From: Escherichia coli
Lineage (GTDB): Bacteria; Pseudomonadota; Gammaproteobacteria; Enterobacterales; Enterobacteriaceae
DNA length: 64,000 bases
Reading direction: 5' to 3' (one strand)
Assembly: GCF_003018235.1 (NCBI RefSeq)
Contig: NZ_CP027437.1
The stretch's first letter is position 1. Every line of letters begins with the position of its first letter. The notes beneath the pieces were generated by a model. The model had not been told where the DNA came from and made no database searches. It worked only from the letters and a program-made list of their open reading frames with translations. Shown here piece after piece: positions 2,237 to 55,985 of this stretch. The position numbers and the translations under genes were made by a program.

Positions 2237-2392
2237 ATGAAGCAGCAAAAGGCGATGTTAATCGCCCTGATCGTCATTTGTTTAACCGTCATAGTGACGG
2301 CACTGGTAACGAGGAAAGACCTCTGCGAGGTACGAATCCGAACCGGCCAGACGGAGGTCGCTGTCTTCACAGCTTACGAACCTGAGGAGTAA
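2237..2392 (+). CDS. hokD: Hok-family type I toxin HokD (RelF), 51 aa
   Basis: Translation MKQQKAMLIALIVICLTVIVTALVTRKDLCEVRIRTGQTEVAVFTAYEPEE; SD aaggag 6 nt upstream of the ATG. Confidence 0.9.
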   Translation: MKQQKAMLIALIVICLTVIVTALVTRKDLCEVRIRTGQTEVAVFTAYEPEE

Positions 2393-2462
2393 GAGACCCG
2401 GCGAGGGAGAAATCCCTCGCCACCTCTGATGTGGCAGGCATCCTCAACGCACCCGCACTTAA

Positions 2463-2490
2463 CCCGCTTCGGCGGGTTTTTGTTTTTATT
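2463..2490 (+). terminator. Rho-independent terminator after hokD
   Basis: Hairpin cccgc-ttcg-gcggg followed by tttttgttttt. Confidence 0.7.
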
Positions 2491-2608
2491 TTCAACGCGT
2501 TTGAAGTTCTGGACGGTGCCGGAATAGAATCAAAAATACTTAAGTAGCGCGCAGGGATAAGAGGGATGGTCCCTTAAAGGGGAGAGCTAATTATCCGGAA
2601 GGATTCTG

Positions 2609-2860
2609 ATGATGAACATCGAAGAACTGCGTAAAATTTTTTGTGAAGATGGCCTCTATGCTGTGTGCGTTGAAAATGGAAATCTTGTTAGTCATTACCG
2701 CATTATGTGTTTGCGAAAGAATGGGGCTGCGTTAATTAATTTTGTGGATGGTCGAGTGACAGACGGATTTATCTTGCGCGAAGGTGAGTTTGTCACTTCA
2801 TTACAGGCACTGAAAGAGATCGGAATAAAAGCAGGCTTTTCAGCTTTTGCAGAAGAATAA
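2609..2860 (+). CDS. rem: Qin prophage small protein Rem
   Basis: 83-aa ORF MMNIEELRKIF... in the conserved hokD-rem-ydfU-Q order. Confidence 0.8.
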   Translation: MMNIEELRKIFCEDGLYAVCVENGNLVSHYRIMCLRKNGAALINFVDGRVTDGFILREGEFVTSLQALKEIGIKAGFSAFAEE

Positions 2861-2926
2861 ACTCATCTACAATCTTGCGCGGGGCTGAACTCCCGCTGAG
2901 TAACACCGTGCCACCGGAGAAAACCG

Positions 2927-3205
2927 ATGGCACGCAACGTAAAATATTACAATTCTGATAATTCGCCCGTTCTTGCCTGCACGCACGAGCGGTATTCTCA
3001 CGCATTCAAGTCTGAATGGTTCCAGCACCCTCCATGCACTGAAGAGCAGGCTGAATGGATAATTCAGTGTTACCGCAGGCGCGGATACGAGGTTAAGAAA
3101 GCCCTTAGTCTCGACTACCGTCACTGGATAATCTCAGTCAGATTGCCTTACTCCGAACGCCCACCGCGTCCGTCCCGTACATTCCAGCAACGCATCTGGA
3201 GGTAA
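2927..3205 (+). CDS. Hypothetical Cys/His-rich protein (92 aa) directly upstream of ydfU
   Basis: ORF ends 1 nt before the ydfU GTG start; no recognisable family. Confidence 0.4.
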   Translation: MARNVKYYNSDNSPVLACTHERYSHAFKSEWFQHPPCTEEQAEWIIQCYRRRGYEVKKALSLDYRHWIISVRLPYSERPPRPSRTFQQRIWR

Positions 3206-3206
3206 C

Positions 3207-4256
3207 GTGCGGGTATTACTTCGACCTGTTCTGGTACCGGAACTCGGGCTGGTGGTCGTTAAGCCGGGCCGTGAATCCATGCCGGTATTCCACAATACCC
3301 GGGTACTGGTGGAGCCGGAACCGAAAAGCATGCGTAATCTGCCGTCCGGGGTCGTTCCTGCCGTTCGCCAGCCGCTGGTGGAAGACAAAACATTGCTGCC
3401 GTTTTTCAGTAACGCACGGGTAATTCGTGCTGCTGGTGGTGCTGGTGCATTGTCTGACTGGCTGTTGCGCCATATTAAATCCTGCCAGTGGCCACACGGC
3501 GATTATCATCACAGTGAAACCGTTATTCACCGTTATGGTACCGGCGCAATGGTGTTGTGCTGGCACTGCGACAACCAGCTGCGTGACCAGACATCCGAAT
3601 CACTCGAGCAACTTGCTCATCAAAACCTGTCAGCATGGATGATTGACGTCATCGGTCACGCAATAAGCGGTACGCAGGAGCGTGAATTATCTCTGGCTGA
3701 ATTATCCTGGTGGGCGGTCCGCAATCAGGTGGCGGACGCGCTACCGGAAGCGGTATTACGTCGCTCGCTGGGATTACCAGCGGAAAAAAACTGCTCGGTG
3801 TACCGCGAAAGCGACATCGTACCGGGAGAGCAGACCGCCACCAGCATATTGAAACAGCGCACAAAAAATCTTGCACCGTTGCCTCACGCCCACCAGCAAC
3901 AAAACCCATCACAGGAAAAGACGGTGGTAAGCATCACCGTTGATCCAGAGTCTCCGGAATCTTTCATGAAGCTGCCTAAACGTCACCGTTGGGTTAAGGA
4001 GAAATACACACGCTGGGTTAAGACACAGCCGTGTGCTTGCTGCGGTATGCCAGCCGACGATCCGCATCATCTGATTGGTCACGGGCAGGGCGGAATGGGA
4101 ACCAAAGCACATGATCTCTTTGTGTTGCCTTTGTGCAGAAAGCATCACGACGAGCTGCATGCGAATACCGTGGCATTTGAAGAGAAGTATGGCTCCCAGC
4201 TGGAGCTGATATTTCGTTTTATCGATCGTGCGCTGGCAATAGGCGTACTGGCGTAA
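3207..4256 (+). CDS. ydfU: DUF968 protein YdfU with C-terminal HNH-like Cys/His cluster
   Basis: 349-aa ORF with GTG start and SD ggagg; C-terminus CACCGMPADDPHHLIGHGQGG...CRKHHDELH. Confidence 0.85.
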   Translation: MRVLLRPVLVPELGLVVVKPGRESMPVFHNTRVLVEPEPKSMRNLPSGVVPAVRQPLVEDKTLLPFFSNARVIRAAGGAGALSDWLLRHIKSCQWPHGDYHHSETVIHRYGTGAMVLCWHCDNQLRDQTSESLEQLAHQNLSAWMIDVIGHAISGTQERELSLAELSWWAVRNQVADALPEAVLRRSLGLPAEKNCSVYRESDIVPGEQTATSILKQRTKNLAPLPHAHQQQNPSQEKTVVSITVDPESPESFMKLPKRHRWVKEKYTRWVKTQPCACCGMPADDPHHLIGHGQGGMGTKAHDLFVLPLCRKHHDELHANTVAFEEKYGSQLELIFRFIDRALAIGVLA

Positions 4257-7350: not shown

Positions 7351-7650
7351 AAAAATTCCTTAATACTGATAACTTGGCGCACTATACACACGTTCCTGAA
7401 GAAAGCTATAGTTTTTTGATGGGGTTGAAGATGGCTGGATGTCTAAAATAAACATTGCTTCATATGTTCAACTATGCGTTAATGATTGCGTCGGTTTGAA
7501 GAACAGACGATATACGAAGTAGTTTACTAAAGCAGTTCTCATTTCAGGTGTTATTCACTTATTCCTTCTTTGAGTCTCTCCAATTAAGTACGAAGTCGTT
7601 TCTGTTATGCAAACCATTTATGCCGAAAGGCTCAAGTTAAGGAATGTAGA

Positions 7651-7866
7651 ATGTCAAATAAAATGACTGGTTTAGTAAAATGGTTTAACGCTGATAAAGG
7701 TTTCGGCTTTATTTCTCCTGTTGATGGTAGTAAAGATGTGTTTGTGCATTTTTCTGCGATTCAGAATGATAATTATCGAACCTTATTTGAAGGTCAAAAG
7801 GTTACCTTCTCTATAGAGAGTGGTGCTAAAGGTCCTGCAGCAGTAAATGTCATCATTACTGATTAA
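7651..7866 (+). CDS. cspB: Cold-shock-like protein CspB
   Basis: 71-aa translation [26 protein letters not shown]... with the CspA-family RNP motifs. Confidence 0.9.
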
Positions 7867-8147
7867 AATTCATCGCTCGTCTGTATACGATAACGAAGAA
7901 GGCTGATGCCTGAGTAGAGATACGGACAGAGTAGTGAATATTGGATCTCTTTAATAAAAAGTAAGGAGATCCAATACATGAAACAATGGCCAGCATATTT
8001 GGCAAAATCTTAATCAGGAAAAGTATGCTAACCATTGTGGTGAAGTGCAGGTTTGCTGCATGAATAGTTTCACAGCAGAAGCTAACTGCTGGCATCGCAA
8101 AACAAAGTGCGTAAGTGGATGACTCCCACAAAAAGCACCACAATCTC

Positions 8148-10175: not shown

Positions 10176-10535
10176 GGTAATATTAAATCGGAACATTTAC
10201 ATCGCGGAATGTAAAATTTAAATAAAAAGGACTCTTCCATGAGCCAAAATTCCTGAAATCTTAAGGGTAAGAAAAGGTCTTAATCAGAATGACACGTTTT
10301 ATTAATAAATAAAGCTATTCTTTCATTGCTGTGTTTTTCTTTACAAAAGTAATCCTTGCTATGGGTGGTTAATCATGCGTTAATGGTGTTCTGGTTTGTT
10401 ACAAATTTATCTGAAGCAGTCATTGTTATAATTTTATTATTTGTACCTCTTGGGATTTCCTTGTTGGTTTTTCTCTCTGATATTTTTTTTCGGACCATTC
10501 TGCCCAAGGGCTAATTTCTTCAAAAGGTAATAATT

Positions 10536-10748
10536 ATGTCTAACAAAATGACTGGTTTAGTGAAATGGTTTAACCCTGAAAAAGGTTTTGGTTTCATCAC
10601 GCCGAAAGATGGCAGCAAAGATGTGTTTGTCCATTTCTCAGCAATTCAGAGCAACGATTTCAAAACATTAACTGAGAATCAGGAAGTTGAATTTGGTATT
10701 GAGAACGGACCTAAAGGTCCTGCCGCTGTTCATGTAGTGGCGCTTTGA
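10536..10748 (+). CDS. cspI: Cold-shock-like protein CspI
   Basis: 70-aa translation [26 protein letters not shown]... Confidence 0.9.
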
Positions 10749-10952
10749 GGTAGACAATATTACAAACCATATTCACTTTAGATGCCCGTGTTGTCATGGT
10801 TCCCAGTATAGAACATCATCTTTTGATGTTTCTGACATGAATCCTTTCGGGGCAAAATGTATCTTTTGTAAATCAATGATGATTACATTTGATAATATTT
10901 CACAATACTTAAATGCCAGCCGTCTGTCGTTGGATTTAAAAAAGTGAAAATG

Positions 10953-35677: not shown

Positions 35678-36252
35678 TGGCATTCAGAATGAGTGAACAA
35701 GCACGGACCATAAAAATTTATAACCTGCTGGCCGGAACTAATGAATTTATTGGTGAAGGTGACGCATATATTCCTCCTCATACAGGTCTGCCTGCAAACA
35801 GTACCGATATTGCACCGCCAGATATTCCGGCTGGCTTTGTGGCTGTTTTCAACAGTGATGAGGCATCGTGGCATCTCGTTGAAGACCATCGGGGAAAAAC
35901 GGTCTATGACGTGGCTTCCGGCGACGCGTTATTTATTTCTGAACTCGGCTCATTACCGGAAAATGTCACCTGGTTATCCCCGGAAGGGGAGTTTCAGAAG
36001 TGGAACGGTACAGCCTGGGTGAAGGATACGGAAGCAGAAAAACTGTTCCGGATCCGGGAGGCGGAAGAAACAAAAAACAGCCTGATGCAGGTAGCCAGTG
36101 AGCATATAGCGCCGCTTCAGGATGCTGTGGATCTGGAGATCGCAACGGAGGAAGAAACCTTGTTGCTGGAAGCCTGGAAAAAGTATCGGGTGTTGCTGAA
36201 CCGTGTTGATACATCAACTGCACCGGATATTGAATGGCCAGCCCTACCGTAG
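35677..36252 (+). CDS. tfa: Tail fibre assembly protein Tfa
   Basis: 191 aa; start overlaps stf stop (ATAATGG). Confidence 0.85.
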
Positions 36253-37492: not shown

Positions 37493-38277
37493 GAAGATAT
37501 TCCTTAAAATATTATTGATTTTCATTGCGATATTGTATGTCTGATTCAGGATATGTTGACTTATACATCGGTTTTGTCTGGGTTATTGGATATGCCAATC
37601 CCTAATTTTATTAGAGCATGACTAAAAATGCTGAATATGATAAGGAGCGAAGTGATTATCAGTATGCTGTTCATATAGCCTCGAATTAGTAATGTGTTAT
37701 ATATGATATAGTTGACAATTTTTATCCTGGGTGTTCTTAAAGTTCGTAGATAAACATTGTCGTTTCAGGTATACAGGAATGCTAACAGGTGGCGGCAAAA
37801 ATCAGGCGGTTTATGGCGCAAGCTGAAGTGGCAACTGCAAACTATCTTATGCAGAGACTCTACACGGATTGGGTTTAAAAGTATACATAGATAACAGTTT
37901 TTATCTGAAGAAGAAAAATATCAAGGTGATATAGCCTATATGCCTTTGATGCGGAGGAATGAATGTGATGGGAGTGATGTATCTGAATAGTTGAAAAACC
38001 GCAGACACGCCTTATGCAAGAACGTGCTGCGGTTGGCTGGTAAATTTTTCGATAGTGCGAGTATTGAATGATTTCCAGCCGTTATTGATTTTACGCGTAA
38101 ATCCATGAAAAAACTACTTATCTGTTGGGGAGTTTTTTTGGGGCATATATGGGACAGAAATAGGCCCCAGATAGACACTGAGATCGAACTTAGGATGCTT
38201 TTTAAAAAATGCAACTATCTGAAAAAACCTAGAAAACGCCAAGGAAACCACAGGATGGGAAAAAACACCTGTGAATT

Positions 38278-39561
38278 ATGGATTTCCAGTTATATTCGCT
38301 CGGCGCAGCGTTAGTGTTTCATGAAATATTTTTTCCTGAATCATCAACGGCAATGGCGTTAATTCTGGCAATGGGAACCTACAGTGCAGGTTATGTGGCG
38401 CGTATTGTCGGAGCATTTATTTTCGGCAAAATGGGCGACAGAATCGGGCGTAAAAAAGTGCTCTTTATTACCATCACTATGATGGGGATCTGTACCACCT
38501 TAATTGGTGTGCTGCCGACCTATGCACAAATTGGTGTGTTTGCGCCAATTTTGCTGGTGACGCTGCGTATTATTCAGGGGCTGGGGGCAGGCGCGGAAAT
38601 TTCCGGTGCCGGCACGATGCTGGCGGAATATGCACCAAAAGGTAAGCGCGGAATTATCTCCTCATTTGTGGCTATGGGAACTAACTGCGGAACCTTGAGC
38701 GCAACGGCAATCTGGGCCTTTATGTTCTTCATTCTCAGTAAAGAGGAACTGCTGGCGTGGGGATGGCGTATACCGTTCCTGGCGAGCGTTGTCGTGATGG
38801 TCTTTGCTATCTGGTTGCGTATGAATCTGAAAGAAAGCCCGGTCTTTGAGAAGGTTAACGACAGCAACCAACCGACAGCAAAACCTGCACCTGCTGGTAG
38901 CATGTTCCAGAGCAAATCCTTCTGGCTGGCAACAGGGCTGCGTTTTGGTCAGGCTGGTAACTCCGGTTTAATTCAGACTTTCCTTGCAGGCTATTTAGTA
39001 CAGACGTTATTGTTTAACAAAGCAATTCCAACAGATGCATTGATGATCAGTTCGATTCTCGGCTTTATGACCATTCCGTTCCTTGGTTGGTTATCCGATA
39101 AAATTGGTCGCCGGATCCCGTATATTATTATGAATACCTCCGCGATTGTGCTGGCATGGCCAATGCTTTCTATCATCGTAGATAAAAGCTATGCCCCGAG
39201 CACCATTATGGTGGCACTGATTGTGATTCATAACTGTGCGGTGCTGGGATTATTTGCTCTGGAAAACATTACCATGGCAGAAATGTTCGGCTGTAAAAAC
39301 CGCTTTACCCGGATGGCCATTTCTAAAGAAATTGGTGGTCTTATCGCTTCCGGTTTTGGTCCTATCCTGGCGGGTATTTTCTGCACCATGACGGAGTCCT
39401 GGTATCCGATCGCCATTATGATCATGGCATATTCAGTGATTGGTTTAATCTCTGCGCTGAAAATGCCAGAAGTGAAAGACCGTGATTTAAGTGCGCTGGA
39501 AGACGCTGCGGAAGATCAACCGCGTGTTGTCAGAGCTGCGCAACCTTCCAGAAGTCTTTAA
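38278..39561 (+). pseudogene. ydfJ: MFS metabolite:H+ symporter YdfJ, N-terminally truncated by the prophage insertion
   Basis: 427-aa ProP/KgtP-like transporter ORF; in-frame stop 2 codons upstream of the first Met. Confidence 0.8.
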
Positions 39562-39649
39562 ATCCTCAATCCCTTCTCTTACCGGAGAGGGGATTTTTAT
39601 TCATATAACAAAACATGTAGCTTGCCATATTTAAATTTAAGGAATTGTT

Positions 39650-41110
39650 ATGGGAAATAATTTGTTATCAGCAAAAGCGACGCTCCCTGTTTATGATCGT
39701 AATAACCTGGCCCCAAGAATTGTTCATTTAGGCTTTGGCGCATTTCACCGTGCGCATCAGGGCGTGTATGCCGATATTCTTGCTACAAAACATTTCAGTG
39801 ATTGGGGATATTATGAGGTCAACTTAATCGGCGGCGAACAGCAAATTGCCGATTTACAACAGCAAGATAATCTTTATACCGTTGCGGAAATGTCGGCCGA
39901 TGCGTGGACGGCTCGCGTCGTTGGCGTCGTTAAAAAAGCCTTGCACGTACAGATTGATGGCTTAGAAACCGTGTTGGCTGCGATGTGTGAACCGCAAATC
40001 GCGATTGTCTCTCTGACAATCACCGAAAAAGGGTATTTCCACTCTCCGGCGACCGGACAGTTAATGCTCGATCACCCGATGGTCGTTGCCGACGTACAAA
40101 ATCCCCACCAGCCGAAAACTGCAACAGGGGTGATTGTCGAGGCGCTGGCTCGCCGTAAAGCGGCAGGACTTCCCGCATTTACCGTCATGTCATGTGACAA
40201 CATGCCAGAAAACGGTCATGTTATGCGTGACGTTGTCACTTCCTACGCGCAAGCTGTTGATGTAAAACTGGCACAATGGATCGAAGAAAACGTGACTTTC
40301 CCATCAACAATGGTGGACCGTATTGTGCCCGCAGTGACAGAGGATACGCTGGCGAAAATCGAACAACTTACCGCTGTGCGCGATCCTGCTGGCGTTGCAT
40401 GTGAACCTTTCCGCCAGTGGGTAATAGAAGATAACTTTGTTGCCGGACGTCCGGAATGGGAAAAAGCGGGAGCCGAACTGGTTAGTGATGTGCTGCCTTA
40501 TGAAGAGATGAAGTTGCGCATGCTCAACGGCAGTCATTCATTCCTGGCGTATCTGGGTTATCTTGCCGGATATCAGCACATTAATGACTGCATGGAAGAT
40601 GAACATTATCGTCATGCAGCGTATGCCTTGATGTTGCAGGAACAAGCGCCGACGTTGAAAGTGCAGGGCGTTGATTTGCAAGATTACGCTAATCGATTAA
40701 TTGAACGCTATAGCAACCCGGCGCTACGTCATCGAACCTGGCAGATTGCGATGGATGGCAGCCAGAAATTGCCACAGCGGATGTTGGATTCTGTTCGCTG
40801 GCATCTGGCGCATGACAGCAAGTTCGATCTGCTGGCGCTGGGCGTCGCAGGTTGGATGCGTTATGTCGGTGGTGTTGATGAACAGGGAAATCCGATAGAA
40901 ATCAGTGACCCACTGTTACCTGTTATTCAGAAGGCTGTACAAAGTAGTGCCGAAGGGAAAGCGCGCGTCCAGTCATTGCTGGCGATTAAGGCGATCTTTG
41001 GTGATGATTTGCCAGACAATAGCTTGTTTACTGCAAAAGTGACGGAAGCGTACTTGTCTTTATTAGCGCATGGTGCGAAAGCGACCGTGGCGAAATATTC
41101 CGTGAAGTAA
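39650..41110 (+). CDS. ydfI: Mannitol/mannonate dehydrogenase-family oxidoreductase YdfI
   Basis: 486 aa with N-terminal Rossmann motif GFGAFHRAH. Confidence 0.85.
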
Positions 41111-41145
41111 AAAAAGCAATGCCGCCATCGGCGGCATTCACACGC

Positions 41146-41349
41146 TTAGTTCATGCCGAGACGAATCAGGTCCAGAGGTGCCAGTTTCTCTTCACAACCT
41201 TCAACAACTACGGTTTTTCCGCGGCGGATTTGCTCAGCGGTCAGACCTTCAGTATCAATCGACAGGATCTTGCCAGTGTGACCGGTGCCGCTAACCATAA
41301 CACGGCTGCCAGTGGTGATTGCGTTACGGTTACGATCGTAGGTCGTCAT
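41146..41349 (-). CDS. ydfZ: Small protein YdfZ (67 aa)
   Basis: [67 protein letters not shown]. Confidence 0.85.
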
Positions 41350-41525
41350 AGGTGTTTTCTCCTTTCTGATTTACAGTCGAAGCCCACGTAACGGGCGCAA
41401 TATAAATACTCCTGTCGAGTGAAATATTTTTTGTTTTTGATCAAGCTCACATCTTTTTTGATGCATGCATGAGCCATAAGGCGGGGGGAAAGACTCTCAC
41501 CCCGGATGGGATGAGAGGAAATGAA

Positions 41526-42212
41526 TTACTCTTCGCTAAACCAGTCGCTGTTTTCCTGACGGATCTGGCGCACGGATTCGCTGATTTCCTGCAAATGTTG
41601 CGTCATTGCACGTTCTACCGCATCGCCATCACGTTTTTGCAGGGCAGAGAAAATCTCAAGATGCTGGCGTAACAGCATTTCTGGTGGAGAAACGTGGTCG
41701 AAACTCATATAGCGCACGCGATCAACGGTCGCTTTCAGGTTCTCAATGGTATCCCACGCCAGTTGACAGTCGGCAATCTGGGTCAGGAGTTGATGGAAGT
41801 TGTCATCAAGTTCAAAAAAATCATCCAGTTGCTTGCGCTCAATGGCAATGCGTTGCTGGTGAAGATTTTGTTCCAGTTGGTAGCACTGGCTTTCGGTAAT
41901 CATGCTCGCCGCCCGACGCGCCACCGCGCACTCAATGGCCTGACGGATAAAACTGCCGTTGCGCACCTGGGCCATGGAAATTTTGTTGACGTAGCTGCCA
42001 CGCTGCGGACGAATTTGAATCAGGCCGTTTTCCGCCAGTTTAATAAAGGCTTCACGAACCGGCTGGCGTGACACATTGAAACGAACAGAAACTTCTTTTT
42101 CCGACAACGGTGTGCCTGGTGCAATCAGGCAATGGACAATGTCGCGACGAAGAATACGATAAATCTGCTGATTGACAGGCTGTGTGGGATTAAGTTGCGT
42201 TTCGACGGTCAT
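41526..42212 (-). CDS. rspR: GntR/FadR-family transcriptional regulator RspR (YdfH)
   Basis: 228 aa with N-terminal winged HTH and C-terminal FCD domain. Confidence 0.8.
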
Positions 42213-42300
42213 TCGTTCTTGCTTGTGAGTGAGTTAACTGCATGAGTCTACCACTTTTTTGTGACAAGCAATAACCCGGCAGTTACGCCGGGTATAAAAA

Positions 42301-43047
42301 TTACTGACGGTGGACATTCAGTCCGGCATAGCTTTGGGTAACCGGCATCATTTCCAGGGTATTGATATTAACGTGAGCAGGCAGCGTTGACACCCACCAG
42401 ACGGCTTCGCTGACATCTTCTGGCGTCAATGCAACGGTATTTTGATAGGTTTTTTCCGCTTTACCGTCATCGCCTTTAAAGCGGACATTGGAAAACTCGG
42501 TACCACCCACCAGACCCGGTTCGATGTCGGTGACGCGCACCGCCGTACCATGCAGGTCCGTACGCAGATTCAGGCTAAACTGACGAACAAACGCTTTCGT
42601 CGCACCGTAAACGTTACCACCGGCATACGGCCAGCTACCAGCCGTTGAGCCAATGTTAATAATATGACCATGATTACGTTCAACCATACCCGGTAAGACG
42701 GCGCGCGTCATATATACCAGGCCTTTGTTGTTGGTATCAATCATCGTTTCCCAGTCTTCAACGCTGGCTTTATGCGCAGGCTCCATGCCCAACGCCAGAC
42801 CGGCATTATTTACCAGGATATCAATATTGCACCACTCGGCAGGAAGCGATGCCAGCATCTCTTCAATAGCGGCGCGGTTGCGAACGTCCAGTTGGGCGAT
42901 ATACAGATTATCTCCCAGTTCGTCTTTTAACTCCTGCAACCGCTCCTGGCGACGGCCAGTGGCGATAACTTTATGCCCTTGTTGAATAAAACGACGAGTA
43001 ATGCATTCACCAAAACCTGCCGTTGCTCCAGTTACTAAAACGATCAT
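42301..43047 (-). CDS. ydfG: NADP-dependent 3-hydroxy acid dehydrogenase YdfG (SDR family)
   Basis: TGATAGFG cofactor motif and YxxxK active site; 248 aa from the ATG with SD gagga. Confidence 0.9.
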   Translation of the reverse strand: MIVLVTGATAGFGECITRRFIQQGHKVIATGRRQERLQELKDELGDNLYIAQLDVRNRAAIEEMLASLPAEWCNIDILVNNAGLALGMEPAHKASVEDWETMIDTNNKGLVYMTRAVLPGMVERNHGHIINIGSTAGSWPYAGGNVYGATKAFVRQFSLNLRTDLHGTAVRVTDIEPGLVGGTEFSNVRFKGDDGKAEKTYQNTVALTPEDVSEAVWWVSTLPAHVNINTLEMMPVTQSYAGLNVHRQ

Positions 43048-43183
43048 CTCACTGTTCCTCAACGCTTTTGTGTGTCAATAACATAGCACGTGATGCTTAA
43101 GAGCGGGTAATACTGGTTTGCAAGATTGCACTCCGTTATCAGTAAGCCTACGCTATGGAACACCTCGCGTTCAGGAGAAGAAA

Positions 43184-45229
43184 ATGACAACAATGAATCC
43201 TTTCCTTGTGCAAAGCACACTGCCGTATCTGGCTCCCCATTTTGATCAAATTGCCAATCATCACTATCGCCCGGCATTCGATGAGGGAATGCAGCAAAAG
43301 CGGGCAGAAATTGCTGCCATCGCGCTTAACCCGCAAGCGCCTGATTTCAACAATACTATTCTGGCACTGGAACAAAGCGGAGAATTACTTACCCGCGTTA
43401 CCAGCGTCTTTTTTGCGATGACTGCGGCGCATACCAATGATGAATTACAGCGTCTTGATGAACAGTTTTCCGCTGAACTGGCGGAACTGGCTAATGATAT
43501 CTATCTGAACGGTGAATTATTCGCGCGGGTAGATGCTGTCTGGCAGCGCCGTGAATCTCTTGGGCTTGATAGTGAATCCATCCGCCTGGTGGAGGTGATT
43601 CATCAGCGTTTTGTCCTTGCCGGAGCCAAACTTGCGCAAGCTGATAAAGCAAAATTAAAAGTACTGAATACAGAAGCTGCGACCCTAACCAGCCAGTTTA
43701 ACCAGCGGTTACTGGCAGCAAATAAATCCGGCGGTCTGGTTGTGAACGATTTCGCGCAGCTGGCAGGAATGAGTGAGCAAGAGATTGCGCTGGCGGCAGG
43801 GGCGGCTCGCGAGAAAGGTCTGGATAACAAATGGCTGATTCCGTTGCTGAATACCACCCAGCAACCAGCGCTTGCTGAACTGCGCGATCGCGCGACGCGT
43901 GAAAAACTGTTCACTGCGGGCTGGACGCGAGCGGAAAAAAATGATGCCAATGATACCCGCGCTATCATTCAACGTCTGGTGGAGATCCGCGCGCAGCAGG
44001 CGAAACTGCTTGGTTTCCCTCATTATGCCGCATGGAAAATCGCCGATCAGATGGCAAAAACGCCAGAAGCAGCACTCAACTTTATGCGGGAAATTGTTCC
44101 AGCGGCGCGTCAACGTGCGAGCGATGAATTAGCCTCCATACAGGCGGTTATCGATAAGCAGCAGGGCGGGTTTAGCGCGCAGCCGTGGGACTGGGCATTT
44201 TATGCCGAGCAGGTAAGACGTGAGAAATTCGATCTCGATGAATCGCAGCTCAAGCTATATTTTGAATTAAACACGGTGTTGAATGAAGGTGTATTCTGGA
44301 CCGCGAATCAGCTCTTCGGTATTAAGTTTGTCGAACGTTTTGATATTCCTGTCTACCATCCTGACGTTCGTGTGTGGGAAATTTTTGATCATAATGGCGT
44401 GGGGCTGGCGTTATTTTACGGTGATTTCTTCGCCCGTGATTCAAAAAGCGGCGGTGCATGGATGGGCAATTTTGTTGAGCAATCATCGCTTAATGAAACG
44501 CATCCGGTAATTTATAACGTCTGCAATTATCAGAAACCCGCTGCCGGTGAGCCTGCGTTGTTACTCTGGGATGATGTCATAACCTTATTCCATGAATTTG
44601 GTCATACGTTGCACGGCCTCTTTGCCCGCCAGCGTTATGCCACACTTTCCGGCACCAACACGCCGCGTGATTTTGTCGAATTTCCGTCGCAAATCAACGA
44701 ACACTGGGCAACGCATCCGCAGGTATTCGCTCGCTACGCCCGGCATTATCAGAGCGGGGCAGCAATGCCTGACGAACTGCAACAGAAAATGCGTAATGCC
44801 AGCTTGTTCAACAAAGGGTATGAGATGAGCGAACTGCTTAGCGCCGCACTTCTCGATATGCGCTGGCATTGCCTGGAAGAAAACGAAGCAATGCAGGATG
44901 TCGATGATTTCGAATTGCGGGCGCTGGTGGCGGAAAATATGGATCTTCCCGCTATACCGCCACGCTATCGCAGCAGTTATTTCGCCCATATTTTTGGTGG
45001 CGGATATGCCGCAGGTTATTACGCTTATCTGTGGACACAAATGTTGGCCGATGATGGTTACCAGTGGTTTGTTGAGCAGGGCAGATTAACGCGTGAAAAT
45101 GGGCTGCGTTTTCGCGAGGCGATCCTTTCCAGAGGTAACAGCGAGGATCTGGAACGCCTGTATCGACAATGGCGCGGTAAGGCACCTCAGATTATGCCGA
45201 TGCTGCAACATCGTGGCTTGAACGTATAA
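43184..45229 (+). CDS. dcp: Peptidyl-dipeptidase Dcp (M3 metallopeptidase)
   Basis: 681 aa with HEFGH zinc-binding motif; SD caggag. Confidence 0.92.
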   Translation: MTTMNPFLVQSTLPYLAPHFDQIANHHYRPAFDEGMQQKRAEIAAIALNPQAPDFNNTILALEQSGELLTRVTSVFFAMTAAHTNDELQRLDEQFSAELAELANDIYLNGELFARVDAVWQRRESLGLDSESIRLVEVIHQRFVLAGAKLAQADKAKLKVLNTEAATLTSQFNQRLLAANKSGGLVVNDFAQLAGMSEQEIALAAGAAREKGLDNKWLIPLLNTTQQPALAELRDRATREKLFTAGWTRAEKNDANDTRAIIQRLVEIRAQQAKLLGFPHYAAWKIADQMAKTPEAALNFMREIVPAARQRASDELASIQAVIDKQQGGFSAQPWDWAFYAEQVRREKFDLDESQLKLYFELNTVLNEGVFWTANQLFGIKFVERFDIPVYHPDVRVWEIFDHNGVGLALFYGDFFARDSKSGGAWMGNFVEQSSLNETHPVIYNVCNYQKPAAGEPALLLWDDVITLFHEFGHTLHGLFARQRYATLSGTNTPRDFVEFPSQINEHWATHPQVFARYARHYQSGAAMPDELQQKMRNASLFNKGYEMSELLSAALLDMRWHCLEENEAMQDVDDFELRALVAENMDLPAIPPRYRSSYFAHIFGGGYAAGYYAYLWTQMLADDGYQWFVEQGRLTRENGLRFREAILSRGNSEDLERLYRQWRGKAPQIMPMLQHRGLNV

Positions 45230-45593
45230 ACACCACCAATGGCTGGCCTGGATTTATCGCCAGACCAGCCTCGTTATAGCAGTAATTGCAGCAGCTGGGT
45301 GAGGGCAAACTTCACCGCTAATGCGAATGCCGTTTCGCAGTCGCCAGCAAAATTACTTTTTTTGTATACCCTTCCGTTATAATAATTTTCAAATTTATAA
45401 ATCTGATTGTTCTGAAATATGTTTAAGACTCTTTAATCTTCTTCTTACTTTAGTGAGTAAAATTCTCTGAATATTTGACAGCTAGTTGCCTGATTTTAAA
45501 TGCCTTATAACAATTGGCAGTATTCTTATTTGTCAATTATAAAAATAGCAACCAGACTTAATAAGTCAAACCAAACGCAATTAAGGAGTCAGT

Positions 45594-45986
45594 ATGAAAT
45601 TTCAGGCCATTGTATTAGCAAGTTTTCTTGTCATGCCTTATGCGTTGGCAGATGACCAGGGCGGATTAAAACAGGATGCAGCGCCACCGCCGCCTCATGC
45701 AATAGAAGATGGCTATCGCGGAACCGATGATGCAAAAAAAATGACCGTTGATTTCGCAAAAACCATGCACGATGGCGCTTCGGTTTCACTGCGCGGTAAT
45801 TTGATTTCTCACAAAGGAGAAGACCGTTACGTTTTTCGCGATAAGAGCGGTGAAATTAATGTTGTTATTCCTGCGGCAGTCTTTGATGGACGAGAAGTTC
45901 AGCCGGACCAGATGATCAACATTAGCGGAAGTCTGGATAAGAAAAGCGCTCCGGCCGTCGTTCGGGTCACTCATTTGCAGAAATAA
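45594..45986 (+). CDS. ydeI: Periplasmic BOF/YgiW-family OB-fold protein
   Basis: 130 aa with signal peptide [19 protein letters not shown]. Confidence 0.75.
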
Positions 45987-46240
45987 AAATAAATTAGCCT
46001 GATGGCCTGAACTACTGGGCCATTAGGGTATTGGGTTATGCTATTTGTCATCCTTTTAATTGCGATAATGCAGGCTTAATTTACAGAATTAAACACTTTT
46101 TTATCTGCTGATTTTGTTTCAAATCACAATGTTATCTCAGAGATGACTCATAACTTAGGATTTCTATGAAAATATTGACGTAATTTTGCTTTTCTCTCGT
46201 TAGAATAGCGCGCACAAGGAACTGTGAAAAAGGAGTGGCA

Positions 46241-47131
46241 ATGATCAAGAAGACAACGGAAATTGATGCCATCTTGTTAAATCTCAATAAGGCTATCGAT
46301 GCCCACTACCAGTGGCTGGTAAGTATGTTTCGCAGCGTAGTCGCGAGAGATGCCAGTAAGCCAGAAATAACGGATAACCATTCTTATGGACTGTGCCAGT
46401 TTGGTCGGTGGATTGATCATCTGGGACCACTCGATAATGATGAATTACCTTATGTTCGGCTAATGGATTCTGCCCATCAACATATGCATAACTGTGGTCG
46501 GGAATTAATGCTGGCTATTGTTGAAAATCACTGGCAGGACGCGCATTTCGACGCCTTTCAGGAGGGGTTGCTTTCTTTTACTGCGGCATTAACCGATTAC
46601 AAAATTTATTTGCTGACGATCCGTAGCAATATGGATGTTTTGACGGGATTGCCGGGTCGTCGGGTTCTTGATGAATCCTTTGATCATCAGTTACGCAACG
46701 CTGAGCCTCTGAATCTTTATTTAATGTTGTTGGATATTGACCGATTTAAATTGGTTAATGATACCTACGGGCATTTAATCGGCGATGTAGTATTACGCAC
46801 CCTGGCAACTTACTTAGCCAGTTGGACGCGCGATTACGAAACGGTTTATCGCTACGGTGGCGAAGAATTTATCATTATTGTCAAAGCGGCTAATGATGAA
46901 GAAGCATGTCGTGCAGGTATCAGAATTTGCCAGTTAGTCGATAACCATGCCATCACACATTCTGAAGGGCATATCAACATTACCGTGACAGCAGGTGTGA
47001 GTCGCGCATTTCCTGAAGAGCCTCTGGATGTGGTCATTGGAAGAGCGGACCGGGCAATGTATGAGGGTAAGCAAACCGGAAGAAATCGCTGTATGTTTAT
47101 TGACGAACAAAACGTGATTAACCGAGTTTAA
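46241..47131 (+). CDS. dgcZ: Zinc-sensing diguanylate cyclase DgcZ (YdeH)
   Basis: N-terminal zinc-binding domain then GGEEF active site (RYGGEEF); 296 aa. Confidence 0.9.
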   Translation: MIKKTTEIDAILLNLNKAIDAHYQWLVSMFRSVVARDASKPEITDNHSYGLCQFGRWIDHLGPLDNDELPYVRLMDSAHQHMHNCGRELMLAIVENHWQDAHFDAFQEGLLSFTAALTDYKIYLLTIRSNMDVLTGLPGRRVLDESFDHQLRNAEPLNLYLMLLDIDRFKLVNDTYGHLIGDVVLRTLATYLASWTRDYETVYRYGGEEFIIIVKAANDEEACRAGIRICQLVDNHAITHSEGHINITVTAGVSRAFPEEPLDVVIGRADRAMYEGKQTGRNRCMFIDEQNVINRV

Positions 47132-47142
47132 GCTCCGTTTAA
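47126..47142 (+). promoter_or_regulatory. PhoP box (direct repeat GTTTAA-N5-GTTTAA) upstream of MgrR
   Basis: Perfect hexamer direct repeat with 5-nt spacer, overlapping the dgcZ stop codon. Confidence 0.6.
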
Positions 47143-47176
47143 CATTCATTGAGAAAACTGATGCTACTGTGTCAAC

Positions 47177-47274
47177 GATCCGTTATCAGTGCAGGAAAAT
47201 GCCTGTTAGCGTAAAAGCAAAACACAAATCTATCCATGCAAGCATTCACCGCCGGTTTACTGGCGGTTTTTTTT
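47177..47274 (+). ncRNA. mgrR: Putative PhoP-activated Hfq-binding sRNA MgrR (5' end approximate)
   Basis: PhoP box upstream; intrinsic terminator accgcc-ggtttact-ggcggt followed by tttttttt at 47247-47274; between dgcZ and mgtS. Confidence 0.45.
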
Positions 47275-47349
47275 CGCCGTCATAAAAATCAGGCCCCTTG
47301 TACACAGTTGTAACAAGGGGCCGGTTAGGTGAGGGATTATCTCCGTTCA

Positions 47350-47445
47350 TTAGTCATCCCATTTGTGGCTGAAATACGCGGCCAGAAAACCAGAAAATAA
47401 AATTATTCCCAGTACGGCCATAAAAACATTCATATTACCCAGCAT
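47350..47445 (-). CDS. mgtS: Small membrane protein MgtS (YneM), 31 aa
   Basis: MLGNMNVFMAVLGIILFSGFLAAYFSHKWDD; SD ggagg 7 nt upstream; hairpin terminator at 47281-47322. Confidence 0.8.
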   Translation of the reverse strand: MLGNMNVFMAVLGIILFSGFLAAYFSHKWDD

Positions 47446-47571
47446 TATTTGCCTCCGTTTATGGTGTGGTGTGTTTCCTCGCTTACCTTAATTTTCATCT
47501 CAATGAGAAAGATATTAGCAGAGGTAACCTAAACGAAGGCTGAATTAAATTTTTATTGTGTTCGACTTAAA

Positions 47572-48759
47572 TCAACAAAGCGCGGGCTGCCCCCACGGTC
47601 TTGCACGAATTCCTTTTAACATCAGCACCCACGCAGCAACGATCACCAACGCTAAGATGATAAACAGCGAGAAAGGCGGCAGACTGGTAAGTACTATGCC
47701 ACTCACTAATGGGTTAATCGCCGCACCAAGCCAGCCTAAAGACTGGGCGGAAAAATAGCTGGCTTTCATTCCTGGCGGTGCAATATGGTCAATCAACATA
47801 TACTCGCCCGGCGCATAAATGATTTCACCGACAGTAAATACCGCAGCTGACATACCCCACAATAGCAGGCTGTTGCCGGAAAAAATAAAACCAACCAGAC
47901 CGATGACGAAACAGAGGGTGCCTGCTGTCATCAGCGCGCGGATGTTAGCCGGGTTAAGGCGGCGGCCCACGGAATATTGCAACGTAACCACCATGGCAGC
48001 ATTCACCGGAAGAACAACCGCGACCACCTTTTCGGCAAAATCCCCATCAGCAATCACCATCACATATTGTGAAATGCACGAGGCAAATGCGCCGCTAACA
48101 AAGGAAGCCAGAAAACCAGAGCAGGTAAACCACAACAGTGCTTTATCTTGTAATAAAACTTTCGGCGACCAGGCACTGCCTGTTTCCGTGGCGATGATTT
48201 TCTCGCTGCGCTTTACCCAAATTTGAATGAAAAGCATGGGAAACGCGGAACAGATAGCTGCCAGCCAGAAGGGCAGATTGATGCTCTGCATCACCAACAA
48301 CGTGCCGAGCGGCGGACCGATGGTCCAGCCAATGTTTAGCATGGTGTAGTTGATTGAGAAGATTTTCGTTTTGCTGGTGGACGAAAGATTGTCGGCAAAC
48401 CAGGCTTTCAACACGGTAGCAAAAACGGAATAGGCGCAGTTAATGAGGGCAAAAAAGAGCACCACCAGCGTCACGTTATTCACTAAAGGAATGGCAATAA
48501 AACCGCTGGCGAAGGCGGTAATTGCCAGTAACATATAGCGTTTCTTGTCGAACTTATCCGCCAGGATACCAAAACCGAGGCTAAAAACGACGCCAATAGT
48601 GAGCGCAATTGTCATCGCATAACCGATTAGATCGACACTCAGGTTGTACTGGCGACTCAAGTAAATGGTCATAAACGGCAGCGTAGCGCCGCGTCCGATG
48701 GTTAATAACAACGACGAGGCAAGAAGGGCGCTGGTAGAGCGTCGGAGGGATAAGTTCAT
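47572..48759 (-). CDS. ydeE: MFS transporter YdeE
   Basis: 395 aa, about 12 transmembrane segments. Confidence 0.85.
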   Translation of the reverse strand: MNLSLRRSTSALLASSLLLTIGRGATLPFMTIYLSRQYNLSVDLIGYAMTIALTIGVVFSLGFGILADKFDKKRYMLLAITAFASGFIAIPLVNNVTLVVLFFALINCAYSVFATVLKAWFADNLSSTSKTKIFSINYTMLNIGWTIGPPLGTLLVMQSINLPFWLAAICSAFPMLFIQIWVKRSEKIIATETGSAWSPKVLLQDKALLWFTCSGFLASFVSGAFASCISQYVMVIADGDFAEKVVAVVLPVNAAMVVTLQYSVGRRLNPANIRALMTAGTLCFVIGLVGFIFSGNSLLLWGMSAAVFTVGEIIYAPGEYMLIDHIAPPGMKASYFSAQSLGWLGAAINPLVSGIVLTSLPPFSLFIILALVIVAAWVLMLKGIRARPWGQPALC

Positions 48760-48953
48760 TTGTCTGTCCGGCAGTGCGTTTCGTTATGTTTTGTTTTAGA
48801 GATGTAAAGAAATAGCATGGCAAAAATCCGAAGTATAGCGACTTATTTGCGCATTAATGCCGTCGTAATCGGCGACTAACGAATCAACTGTTAAAGAAAA
48901 GTAAATTCAGCTAAGTTGATTGCTTACAAAAGATGAAATTCAGAGGCGGTAGA

Positions 48954-49853
48954 ATGTCGCGAAAAGATGGGGTGTTGGCGCTACTGGTAGTGGTCGTATG
49001 GGGGCTGAATTTTGTGGTCATCAAAGTGGGGCTTCATAACATGCCACCGCTGATGCTGGCCGGTTTGCGCTTTATGCTGGTCGCTTTTCCGGCCATCTTT
49101 TTTGTCGCACGACCGAAAGTACCACTGAATTTGTTGCTGGGGTATGGATTAACCATCAGTTTTGCGCAGTTTGCTTTTCTTTTTTGTGCCATTAACTTCG
49201 GTATGCCTGCTGGACTGGCTTCGCTGGTGTTACAGGCACAGGCGTTTTTTACTATCGTACTTGGCGCATTTACTTTCGGTGAGCGGCTGCATGGCAAACA
49301 ATTGGCGGGGATTGCCTTAGCGATTTTTGGCGTACTGGTGTTAATCGAAGATAGTCTGAACGGTCAGCATGTGGCGATGCTCGGCTTTATGTTGACCCTG
49401 GCGGCAGCATTTAGTTGGGCGTGTGGCAACATCTTCAATAAAAAGATCATGTCGCACTCAACGCGCCCGGCGGTGATGTCGCTGGTAATCTGGAGCGCAT
49501 TAATCCCAATCATTCCCTTCTTTGTTGCCTCGCTGATTCTCGATGGTTCCGCAACCATGATTCACAGTCTGGTCACTATCGATATGACCACCATCTTGTC
49601 TCTGATGTATCTGGCGTTTGTGGCGACAATTGTTGGTTATGGGATCTGGGGGACGTTACTGGGACGCTATGAAACCTGGCGGGTTGCACCGTTATCGTTA
49701 CTGGTGCCCGTAGTAGGACTGGCAAGTGCGGCACTATTGTTGGATGAACGCTTAACGGGTCTACAATTTTTCGGTGCGGTGCTCATTATGACCGGGCTGT
49801 ATATCAATGTATTTGGCTTGCGGTGGCGTAAAGCGGTAAAGGTTAGAGGCTAA
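48954..49853 (+). CDS. eamA: Cysteine/O-acetylserine exporter EamA (YdeD), DMT superfamily
   Basis: 299 aa, 10-TM DMT fold; SD gaggcgg. Confidence 0.9.
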   Translation: MSRKDGVLALLVVVVWGLNFVVIKVGLHNMPPLMLAGLRFMLVAFPAIFFVARPKVPLNLLLGYGLTISFAQFAFLFCAINFGMPAGLASLVLQAQAFFTIVLGAFTFGERLHGKQLAGIALAIFGVLVLIEDSLNGQHVAMLGFMLTLAAAFSWACGNIFNKKIMSHSTRPAVMSLVIWSALIPIIPFFVASLILDGSATMIHSLVTIDMTTILSLMYLAFVATIVGYGIWGTLLGRYETWRVAPLSLLVPVVGLASAALLLDERLTGLQFFGAVLIMTGLYINVFGLRWRKAVKVRG

Positions 49854-49856
49854 ACC

Positions 49857-49900
49857 ATACGCACAGAATGTGATGCCAGCACTCTGTGCGTATGCTTTTA
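49857..49900. terminator. Bidirectional hairpin terminator between eamA and the PTS-islet regulator
   Basis: 12-bp stem catacgcacaga / tctgtgcgtatg followed by cttttat. Confidence 0.55.
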
Positions 49901-50596
49901 TCGCGGGAAAAAGTACTTTACCTGGAACTCGAAAATATTGCTGTAAAGTAACGAATAATCCAGCGGAATAGAGTTACTGTCCACAGCCTGGGTCTGAATT
50001 TTAAGTATGGGATCCCGTGGGCTGATCCGTAAAATACTGGCGATTTCTGGGGTAGGAAAAGTAGGGGAGAAAGTTTCAAAGGTGCCAATGATTTTGATCC
50101 CGCATTCGTTCTCAATATACGAAAATTTGGATTTTTGCATATGTGCTACGGTTAAATCAGGAAAACGTGCCACTGACATCCACGTTTCTTCTAATTGTGC
50201 TGCATTATCCTCAATGAATCGCAGTCTCTTTATGTAATAAACCTGCTCACCAGTCACTAAATTCAGCTCAGTCGCAATAGGGGGAGAAGCATCCTGCACT
50301 TCAAATTTCATAATCTGACTTCCTGCCTCCTTGCCGCTTTTATGCGCAATTTCACTGAAGCTGTTCATGTGATCAATGTGTGCAACAAAATTCTTTTTTT
50401 GAATATATGTTCCTGAACCATGCTTTCTATGAATAATTCCTTCGCCTTCCAGCAAGGATAATGCCTTACGCAGGGTATTACGCGAAACATTATAACGAAC
50501 AGCGAGTTCAGCTTCTGACGGCAACAAATCACCAACATGCCATGAATAGCCATTGATCTCGGATTTAAGTAAGCGGGCAATCTTTTGAAAAATCAC
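49898..50596 (-). CDS. GntR/HutC-family transcriptional regulator (probable repressor of the adjacent PTS operon)
   Basis: N-terminal winged HTH, C-terminal UTRA-like domain; GTG start with SD aaggtg; divergent from the PTS operon. Confidence 0.8.
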   Translation of the reverse strand: MIFQKIARLLKSEINGYSWHVGDLLPSEAELAVRYNVSRNTLRKALSLLEGEGIIHRKHGSGTYIQKKNFVAHIDHMNSFSEIAHKSGKEAGSQIMKFEVQDASPPIATELNLVTGEQVYYIKRLRFIEDNAAQLEETWMSVARFPDLTVAHMQKSKFSYIENECGIKIIGTFETFSPTFPTPEIASILRISPRDPILKIQTQAVDSNSIPLDYSLLYSNIFEFQVKYFFPR

Positions 50597-50794
50597 TTTT
50601 GCACCTTTTAAGAGCCATTGAAAACAAGGAGTTGAGTCCTGATTGGTTTATCGTATGGCCGAGTCGTTTAATTATTACCCTGATGTTGAACAACTTTATT
50701 GCTGTATTACTGTGATCAATGTACCAGGACGTATAGCTACTGCGGGATATGATATTTACACAATGTAATCTGTTATATACCAGTAAGGGAAAAT

Positions 50795-51106
50795 ATGAAA
50801 AAGATATTGTTAGTTTGCGCTGCGGGCATGTCAACCAGTATGCTGGTTAAACGTATGATTGATCATGCTAACGCTATTTCACTTGAAGTTAATATTTCCG
50901 CATTGGCGATTGCAGAGGCTAAAGGGAAAATTAAAAATAACGAAGTTGACGTTGTTTTACTTGGCCCGCAAGTTCGCTTTCAGAAACCAGAGATTGAAGC
51001 TGTTGCACAGGGGAAAATGCCTGTAGCTGTTATCGAGATGAAAGACTATGGCACCATGAACGGACAGGCAGTTCTTGAATTTGCGATGAAACTACTGCAA
51101 GAGTAA
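50795..51106 (+). CDS. PTS lactose/cellobiose-family EIIB
   Basis: MKKILLVCAAGMSTSMLV with phospho-acceptor Cys, 103 aa. Confidence 0.85.
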   Translation: MKKILLVCAAGMSTSMLVKRMIDHANAISLEVNISALAIAEAKGKIKNNEVDVVLLGPQVRFQKPEIEAVAQGKMPVAVIEMKDYGTMNGQAVLEFAMKLLQE

Positions 51107-51220
51107 GAATCTAATATTATTAAACTATTACCTGAACTAACTTTTCACACATCATAAAATGGATATGGCATACATGCTTTATTGGGATGTATAAATATCC
51201 AGAACAACACGTATAAAAAA

Positions 51221-52543
51221 ATGAGATTAATGACCTCATTCGAACGTGGAATGGAACGTTTTCTTGTTCCAGTTGCTATCAAGTTAAACTCACAAAAACA
51301 TGTTGCAGCGGTGAGAGATGGATTCGTTTTTACGTTTCCAATTATCATGGCAAGCTCATTAATTATATTAATAAACTTTGCCATATTATCGCCAGACGGC
51401 TTTATTGCCGGACTGCTGCATCTGAACAGCGTTTTTCCCAACCTTGAAAAAGCACAAGCTATTTTTACTCCGGTAATGAATGGCTCTGTAAATATCATGT
51501 CAATTATGATTGCTTTCCTGGTCGCCAGAAATATGGCGATTAGCTATGAGCAAGATGATCTTTTATGCGGATTAACGGCAATAGGCGCATTTTTTATTGT
51601 TTATACGCCATATCAGATGATAGATGGACAAGCATTCCTGACGACCAAATATCTCGGCGCACAGGGGTTGTTTGTTGCTGTTATCGTTGCATTAATCACC
51701 AGTGAAATATTTTGTCGCTTAGCTCGAAACCCAAAAATCACCATAACGATGCCGGCATCTGTACCTCCTGCGGTAGCGCGTTCATTTAAAGTTTTATTGC
51801 CAATATTTTTTGTCATGGTGTTCTTTTCCGCACTTAATTATTGCCTGACACTGATATCCCCGGCAGGATTAAACGATCTCATTTACACATTAATCCAGAC
51901 GCCGCTCAAACATATGGGAACGAATATCTTTGCGGTAATTATCCTGGGGGCTGTGGGTAATTTCCTGTGGGTGCTGGGGATCCACGGACCTAATACCACC
52001 TCGGCAATTCGAGAAACTGTTTTTTCTGAGGCTAATCTGGAGAATCTCTCCTGGGCCGCTCAACACGGCACTACCTGGGGCGCGCCATATCCGATTACCT
52101 GGACTTCTATTAATGATGCATTCGCCAACTGCGGCGGTTCAGGCATGACGTTGGGATTATTGTTGGCTATTTTCATCGCTTCTAAGCGTGCGGAATACCG
52201 TGATCTGGCAAAAATGTCATTTATCCCCGGTATTTTCAATATCAATGAACCGATAATGTTCGGCCTTCCTATTGTACTTAACCCCATCATGATGGTGCCG
52301 TTTATTCTGGTTCCCATTGTTAACTGTGCCATTGGTTACTGCTTTGTTTCGATGGAAATTATTCCACCGGTTGCTTATGCCGTGCCCTGGACTACGCCCG
52401 GACCTTTAATTGCTTTCCTCGGAACCGGGGGAAACTGGCTGGCGTTACTGGTGGGTTTTTTATGTTTAGGTGTGGCGACAATGATCTATTTACCTTTTGT
52501 TATTGCAGCCAACAAGGTCAATAACATGACAACTAACGGATAA
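51221..52543 (+). CDS. PTS lactose/cellobiose-family EIIC permease
   Basis: About 440 aa polytopic membrane protein resembling ChbC; start approximate. Confidence 0.85.
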   Translation: MRLMTSFERGMERFLVPVAIKLNSQKHVAAVRDGFVFTFPIIMASSLIILINFAILSPDGFIAGLLHLNSVFPNLEKAQAIFTPVMNGSVNIMSIMIAFLVARNMAISYEQDDLLCGLTAIGAFFIVYTPYQMIDGQAFLTTKYLGAQGLFVAVIVALITSEIFCRLARNPKITITMPASVPPAVARSFKVLLPIFFVMVFFSALNYCLTLISPAGLNDLIYTLIQTPLKHMGTNIFAVIILGAVGNFLWVLGIHGPNTTSAIRETVFSEANLENLSWAAQHGTTWGAPYPITWTSINDAFANCGGSGMTLGLLLAIFIASKRAEYRDLAKMSFIPGIFNINEPIMFGLPIVLNPIMMVPFILVPIVNCAIGYCFVSMEIIPPVAYAVPWTTPGPLIAFLGTGGNWLALLVGFLCLGVATMIYLPFVIAANKVNNMTTNG

Positions 52544-52570
52544 TCCCATTTACACAGGAAGGAGATGTTG

Positions 52571-52882
52571 ATGTTTGCAGATGAAGAACTTGTTATGGAG
52601 TTACTGATCAACGCGGGACAGGCACGTTCTGATGCGATGGAAGCCATACGTTGTGCCGGGCAAAAAGACTGGCAGGGCGCAACTCAGCTAATGGCCAGTT
52701 CGGAATTAGCCTGTCTTCAGGCACATAAGATTCAGACCGCGTTAATTAGTCAGGATGAAGGTTGTGGCAAAATAGTAGTTAATTTAATTCTGGTTCATGC
52801 ACAGGATCATTTGATGAATGCAATATTATGCCAGGATTTAGCCAGGGAAATTATTTCATTAAGAAAAGAGCTCCATGCCTGA
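52571..52882 (+). CDS. PTS lactose/cellobiose-family EIIA
   Basis: About 103 aa helical protein with conserved His, like ChbA; start chosen by SD spacing. Confidence 0.8.
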   Translation: MFADEELVMELLINAGQARSDAMEAIRCAGQKDWQGATQLMASSELACLQAHKIQTALISQDEGCGKIVVNLILVHAQDHLMNAILCQDLAREIISLRKELHA

Positions 52883-52934
52883 TTTTTTCCTCCAGTGCGA
52901 TAGCTGGAGGAAATTATTACACTCTTAAGGATAA

Positions 52935-55985
<3,051 letters not shown>

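Follow-up and report, generated by a model that had tools for sequence, protein, structure and literature searches.

The 364-bp spacer between dcp and ydeI (positions 45230-45593 of the window, the 64,000-nucleotide stretch of Escherichia coli DNA analyzed here) is, with a probability of about 0.96, the leftover of one old 475-bp deletion of ydeJ that occurred by illegitimate recombination at the level of microhomology. According to this reading, a single ancient event would have removed the 5′ part of ydeJ together with its leader and left three elements behind: a hairpin that still stands 3′ of dcp and is most likely the dcp 3′-end stem-loop, an untranslatable tail of 26 ydeJ codons on the minus strand, and about 240 bp from between ydeJ and ydeI, which presumably still serve ydeI. 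The deletion allele would then have been inherited by, or spread through recombination to, about one-third of the sequenced E. coli, and a second deletion of 504 bp then took ydeI as well in the B2 strains.

The ydeJ remnant and its surroundings

The left boundary of the spacer is formed by the stop codon of dcp, which encodes peptidyl-dipeptidase Dcp (43184-45229, plus strand; TAA at 45227-45229). The end of this ORF was read directly, and its start at 43184 was inferred from the length of the homologous dcp in strain 104 and O158:H23, which PGAP annotates as 2046 bp. On the right, the spacer is bounded by an intact ydeI (45594-45986, plus strand), a 130-aa ORF for a BOF/OB-fold periplasmic stress protein that matched the Pfam family BOF (PF04076, E = 4.9e-41) and is annotated by PGAP in the strain 104 and O158:H23 loci. 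The initial annotation had reported no ORF of at least 60 aa between these genes, had read part of the spacer as the 3′ end of a coding region on the minus strand, and had proposed that a gene was deleted here. All three statements were borne out. The longest frame in the ORF list for 45230-45593 was 47-51 aa, and positions 45274-45354 of the minus strand were translated as NFAGDCETAFALAVKFALTQLLQLLL, followed by a stop codon at 45274-45276; the C-terminal end of the intact YdeJ protein is ...HFAGDCETVLALAVRFALAQLLQLLL, likewise followed by a stop.

The 26-aa peptide of this stub matched positions 148-172 of 175 in the YdeJ equivalog model NF002972 (E = 4.5e-6), and its coding sequence agrees with the terminal 26 codons of K-12 ydeJ at 73 of 78 nucleotide positions. 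The intact protein (172 aa) consists of one CinA/PncC domain spanning residues 19-171 (Pfam PF02464, E = 1.8e-47). The stub also occupies the position of the intact gene in the same orientation, between dcp and ydeI, convergent with the former and divergent from the latter. By its sequence, the stub is a 5′-truncated ydeJ pseudogene, the remnant of a CinA/PncC-domain gene. It shares the position, orientation, stop codon, and downstream hairpin with ydeJ of K-12 (b1537) but lacks codons 1-146 with the start codon, the ribosome-binding site, and 37 bp of leader/promoter, and it carries four amino acid changes in the tail. Only 26 of the 172 codons are left; because the N-terminal codons, the start codon, and the ribosome-binding site are gone, no YdeJ protein can be made from the stub, and the stub itself is probably functionless and drifting.

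The remnant is an ordinary and already known feature: RefSeq annotates it in hundreds of genomes. The same 81 bp are labeled by PGAP as a pseudogene (“incomplete; missing N-terminus”) in strain 104 (DDV95_RS26320), O158:H23 (KQ220_RS25275), ATCC 11775 (EAS44_RS25565), and FY26. The pseudogenes of strain 104 and O158:H23 coincide with that of the window in the 81-bp interval, strand, and junction, with 99.8-100% identity between the window and strain 104 over this interval. In contrast, the pseudogenes of ATCC 11775 and other B2 strains are accompanied by the loss of 45394-45897, a segment that covers the 5′ half of ydeI and that the window retains. The value of the finding for annotation is that the stub can be labeled as a ydeJ pseudogene; the remnant had been spotted correctly by reading the raw sequence without tools.

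Endpoints, probable mechanism, and direction of the deletion

Intact ydeJ comprises 519 bp on the minus strand relative to dcp in both K-12 (retrieved locus L004, positions 3274-3792) and strain 58-3. Alignment of the spacer with the dcp-ydeI regions of other E. coli, the check proposed in the initial annotation, bore out its interpretation and showed that intact loci carry ydeJ and contain 475 extra bases exactly at window position 45353/45354. Genomes with the short spacer were equal to the window in the length of the interval, but the others held ydeJ at this place. When the window was aligned jointly with an intact locus and a B2 locus, one gap of 475 columns with collinear flanks appeared, and the alignment with K-12 placed the gap at 45352/45353-45354. 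Taking the alignments and the junction contexts together, the junction was assigned to 45351-45354, with 475 bp missing between 45353 and 45354. The deleted DNA comprised ydeJ codons 1-146 and 37 bp upstream of the start codon, including the ribosome-binding site. Depending on which intact allele was used for comparison, the two breakpoints shared AT or AAT, a microhomology of 2-3 bp, and a repeat search found no direct repeats at the deletion. Microhomology limited to AT or AAT therefore points to illegitimate recombination and not to recombination between repeats.

Since the comparison of the two sequence forms is by itself symmetrical, the short spacer might also be regarded as ancestral, with the ydeJ-intact genomes having gained the 475 bp by insertion. 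Such a gain could draw on the outgroup Escherichia sp. MOD1-EC7003 (a cryptic-clade Escherichia, approximately 94% identical, the sole non-coli Escherichia locus retrieved), in which most of ydeJ is also missing. However, this strain keeps the hairpin and the last approximately 19 codons of ydeJ; its homology with the window ends at 45317 and resumes at 47075, and its deletion also removes ydeI and dgcZ. A breakpoint (45317) that differs from that of the window (45353), together with the larger extent of the deletion, therefore indicates an independent loss. In addition, the 475 bp complete a one-domain CinA ORF in frame with the stub, which is implausible for an insertion and therefore identifies the short form as derived. 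Finally, Salmonella has ydeJ too (STM14_1830, now named rdsA; PMC7387798), and the gene has been discussed as a pncC paralogue of E. coli and Salmonella without NMN deamidase activity (PMC3855486). Because the stub is the end of a single-domain CinA protein and the gene exists in Salmonella, the event was a loss and not a gain, and the insertion of ydeJ is effectively refuted. Deletion remains our reading of the spacer, and none of the observations speaks against it. Repeated losses seem to be a tendency of the dcp-eamA segment.

Distribution and divergence of the deletion haplotype

A megablast search of 45130-45700 against 5,426 complete E. coli genomes revealed three arrangements of the locus: the window type, represented by strain 104 and others and collinear with the window; the intact type; and the B2 type. 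With a 95-bp query across the junction, 1,776 genomes matched at a coverage of at least 80%, nearly all of them at an identity of at least 95%, and the deleted 475 bp were present in 3,607-3,618 genomes. Taken as totals over the collection and not genome by genome, 3,618 genomes with the deleted 475 bp and 1,778 with the junction add up to 5,396 of 5,426, which is consistent with the two being mutually exclusive. The “lineage” in which the initial annotation placed the deletion is therefore large, 1,776 of 5,426 genomes having the identical junction. Among its carriers, the deletion haplotype is 98-100% identical, and the identical endpoints suggest a single origin. The idea that ydeJ was collapsed out of this particular assembly, as a sequencing or assembly artefact, is refuted by the same count, since 1,776 independent complete genomes have exactly this junction and PGAP annotates it.

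The B2 strains ATCC 11775, Nissle 1917, ST131, and FY26 have the same ydeJ junction. Their second deletion corresponds to window positions 45394-45897 (504 bp, with TT as microhomology) and takes the ydeI promoter and approximately the first 101 codons of the gene; it was compared in retrieved loci L003 (2501-2853) and L005 (2474-2682), and the corresponding DNA is intact in the window. As a result of this double deletion, both YdeJ and YdeI are absent. From the shortfall in coverage of the 571-bp query, approximately 1,100 genomes were estimated to be doubly deleted and approximately 700 to be of the window type; both values are estimates, as the direct megablast count was confounded by the joining of the flanks in ydeI-intact genomes as one place.

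Natural ydeJ/rdsA knockouts make up about one-third of E. coli and, as far as it was sampled, the entire B2 lineage of extraintestinal pathogens. The gene is dispensable in Escherichia and has been lost repeatedly, the locus being affected by three different deletions. The presence or absence of ydeJ, combined with the nested deletion in ydeI, provides a convenient lineage marker, and the distribution is relevant to functional studies of YdeJ/RdsA or YdeI, as B2 strains lack both. In Salmonella Typhimurium, deletion of the ydeJ orthologue rdsA led to increased negative supercoiling, which RdsA was reported to restrain (PMC7387798). In published work, YdeJ shows no NMN deamidase activity (PMC3855486) and is described, under the name RdsA, as a regulator of supercoiling (PMC7387798). 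The RefSeq/NCBIfam equivalog NF002972 names it “2-oxo-tetronate isomerase,” and its domain is CinA/PncC (PF02464, TIGR00199); no paper was found from which this product name derives.

Five of the 78 nucleotides of the stub differ from the intact alleles; four of these changes are non-synonymous (V>A, L>F, R>K, and A>T) and one is synonymous. The MOD1-EC7003 outgroup, which polarises only the first approximately 45 bp of the stub, covers two of the differing sites and agrees with the intact allele at both; therefore, those two changes arose on the deletion haplotype. Around the junction, the divergence between the window and K-12 reached 6%, 14%, and 8% in three 100-bp bins, against a background of 0-3%. 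These values fit relaxed constraint on the tail of a dead gene and on an orphaned promoter, and they also fit an old split between haplotypes that were kept distinct beside an indel. Both readings apply to the excess divergence of the right flank (45354-45499), DNA that the sole outgroup recovered lacks.

Several observations were made along the rest of the compared region. Against the same 0-3% background, the divergence from K-12 also rose to 5-11% per 100 bp at 43800-44299, inside dcp, and to 9% at 47600-47699; the spikes in dcp and near 47600 resemble short tracts introduced by recombination from a more distant lineage. In MOD1-EC7003 (locus L007, reverse complement of 2291-3524, compared with window 45317-48826), further gaps were located at 47301-48825, in the mgtS/mgtT/ydeE region, and at 49832-55953. 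Over 38000-52000, the best match to the window among the 5,426 complete E. coli genomes was 99.1% over 14 kb (O158:H23 CFIAFB20140388); therefore, the source genome either lies outside the collection or is a mosaic of lineages here.

The hairpin and the DNA upstream of ydeI

The initial annotation had placed a hairpin at the very beginning of the spacer. The hairpin is real, but it starts 11 bases into the spacer, at 45241, and not at the first base. Its arms, ggctggcctgg (45241-45251) and ccagaccagcc (45260-45270), are 11 bp long and enclose a loop of 8 nt, so that the GC-rich stem-loop covers 45241-45270 on both strands, 11 nt past the dcp stop codon and 3 nt past the ydeJ stop codon. On the plus strand, 10 of the 11 pairs are Watson-Crick pairs, and the remaining position, a C/A mismatch, pairs as G-U on the minus strand. 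The predicted folding energy was -18.2 kcal/mol (z -3.2) for the plus strand and -26.6 kcal/mol (z -4.7) for the minus strand. K-12, strain 58-3, and Escherichia sp. MOD1-EC7003 also have the hairpin, in slightly different form; it is a pre-existing stem-loop that the convergent genes dcp and ydeJ share at their 3′ ends.

This hairpin probably acts as a 3′-end or terminator-like element for the transcripts of both dcp and ydeJ. It resembles the bidirectional stem-loops located between convergent genes in its GC-rich 11-bp stem, short loop, and stability on both strands. It differs from canonical intrinsic terminators, as neither strand has a U-run: the tails directly 3′ of the stem are CTCGTTATAG (plus) and ATTGGTGGTG (minus), without a T-run in either. 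As the canonical T-run is absent, the role in termination is putative, and the promoter/terminator scan returned 0 terminator-like sites. Two assignments were rejected. A canonical Rho-independent (intrinsic) terminator would agree with the GC-rich stem-loop but not with the missing T/U-run, and a dispersed repeat of the REP/BIME type was discarded because the motif occurs just once in the 64-kb window, also when 3 mismatches are allowed (0 chance matches expected). In the megablast search of complete E. coli genomes, the 571-bp query (45130-45700) had a median of one place per genome.

On the other side of the junction, positions 45355-45593 (plus strand) are the surviving part of the divergent ydeJ-ydeI intergenic region, as recognized by alignment with K-12 and 58-3. 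This part is collinear with the K-12 ydeJ-ydeI intergenic region except for 1- and 2-bp indels and includes the Shine-Dalgarno sequence of ydeI, AAGGAG, at 45583-45588. Judging from its position, it probably represents the upstream/regulatory DNA of ydeI. On the minus strand, two promoter-like hexamers, TTGAAA (45392-45387) and TATACA (45368-45363), are separated by an 18-nt spacer. Speculatively, and as read from the letters alone, this candidate site (45363-45392) may be the leftover ydeJ promoter, which would now point into the stub; the consensus promoter scan did not report it.

If this candidate promoter fired, it could yield an RNA of approximately 90-120 nt ending at the minus-strand hairpin, that is, an sRNA derived from a gene remnant. 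The geometry is suggestive, as the hexamers lie approximately 10 nt from the junction and the minus-strand hairpin is strong (-26.6 kcal/mol, z -4.7); however, the promoter scan was silent at the hexamer site, and no T-run follows the hairpin. Similarly, a 129-nt stretch of the minus strand folded with a z-score of -3.0, but this value came mostly from the hairpin itself, which existed before the deletion. The 98-100% conservation of the deletion haplotype among its carriers might be taken in favour of such an RNA; it is, however, explained by recent common descent, and the substitutions in the stub look unconstrained. A search with the Rfam 15 covariance models gave no match at E <= 1 in 44800-46300. 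A functional RNA is unlikely because only the geometry supports it, and we consider an sRNA produced in this way highly improbable. It is likewise doubtful, if somewhat less so, that the loss of ydeJ/rdsA marks a lineage-specific shift in the supercoiling set-point, or that an orphaned supercoiling-sensitive promoter and the stub together make a small non-coding RNA; the gene loss is the one finding in favour of these two ideas. The drifting pseudogene left by the 475-bp deletion is the reading that we retain for this part of the spacer. In Shigella flexneri, the sRNA candidates Ssr13 and Ssr37 were described for the interval “ydeJ/SF1559” (PMC4782007); they were not equated with the spacer, as they lie 600-860 bp apart in an interval longer than the one considered here (PMC4782007).

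The Rfam match nearest to the spacer was a full-length match to STnc560 at 47143-47356 (plus strand, 280 bits), which overlaps the MgrR sRNA and the genes of the small proteins mgtS/mgtT as annotated in K-12 and O158:H23. Elsewhere in the window, matches at the Rfam gathering score comprised a sok antitoxin RNA of a hok/sok-type locus (2068-2242), two cspA-type 5′UTR thermoregulators located approximately 2.9 kb apart (7490-7913 and 10390-10775), and IS009 (36020-36218), all on the plus strand.
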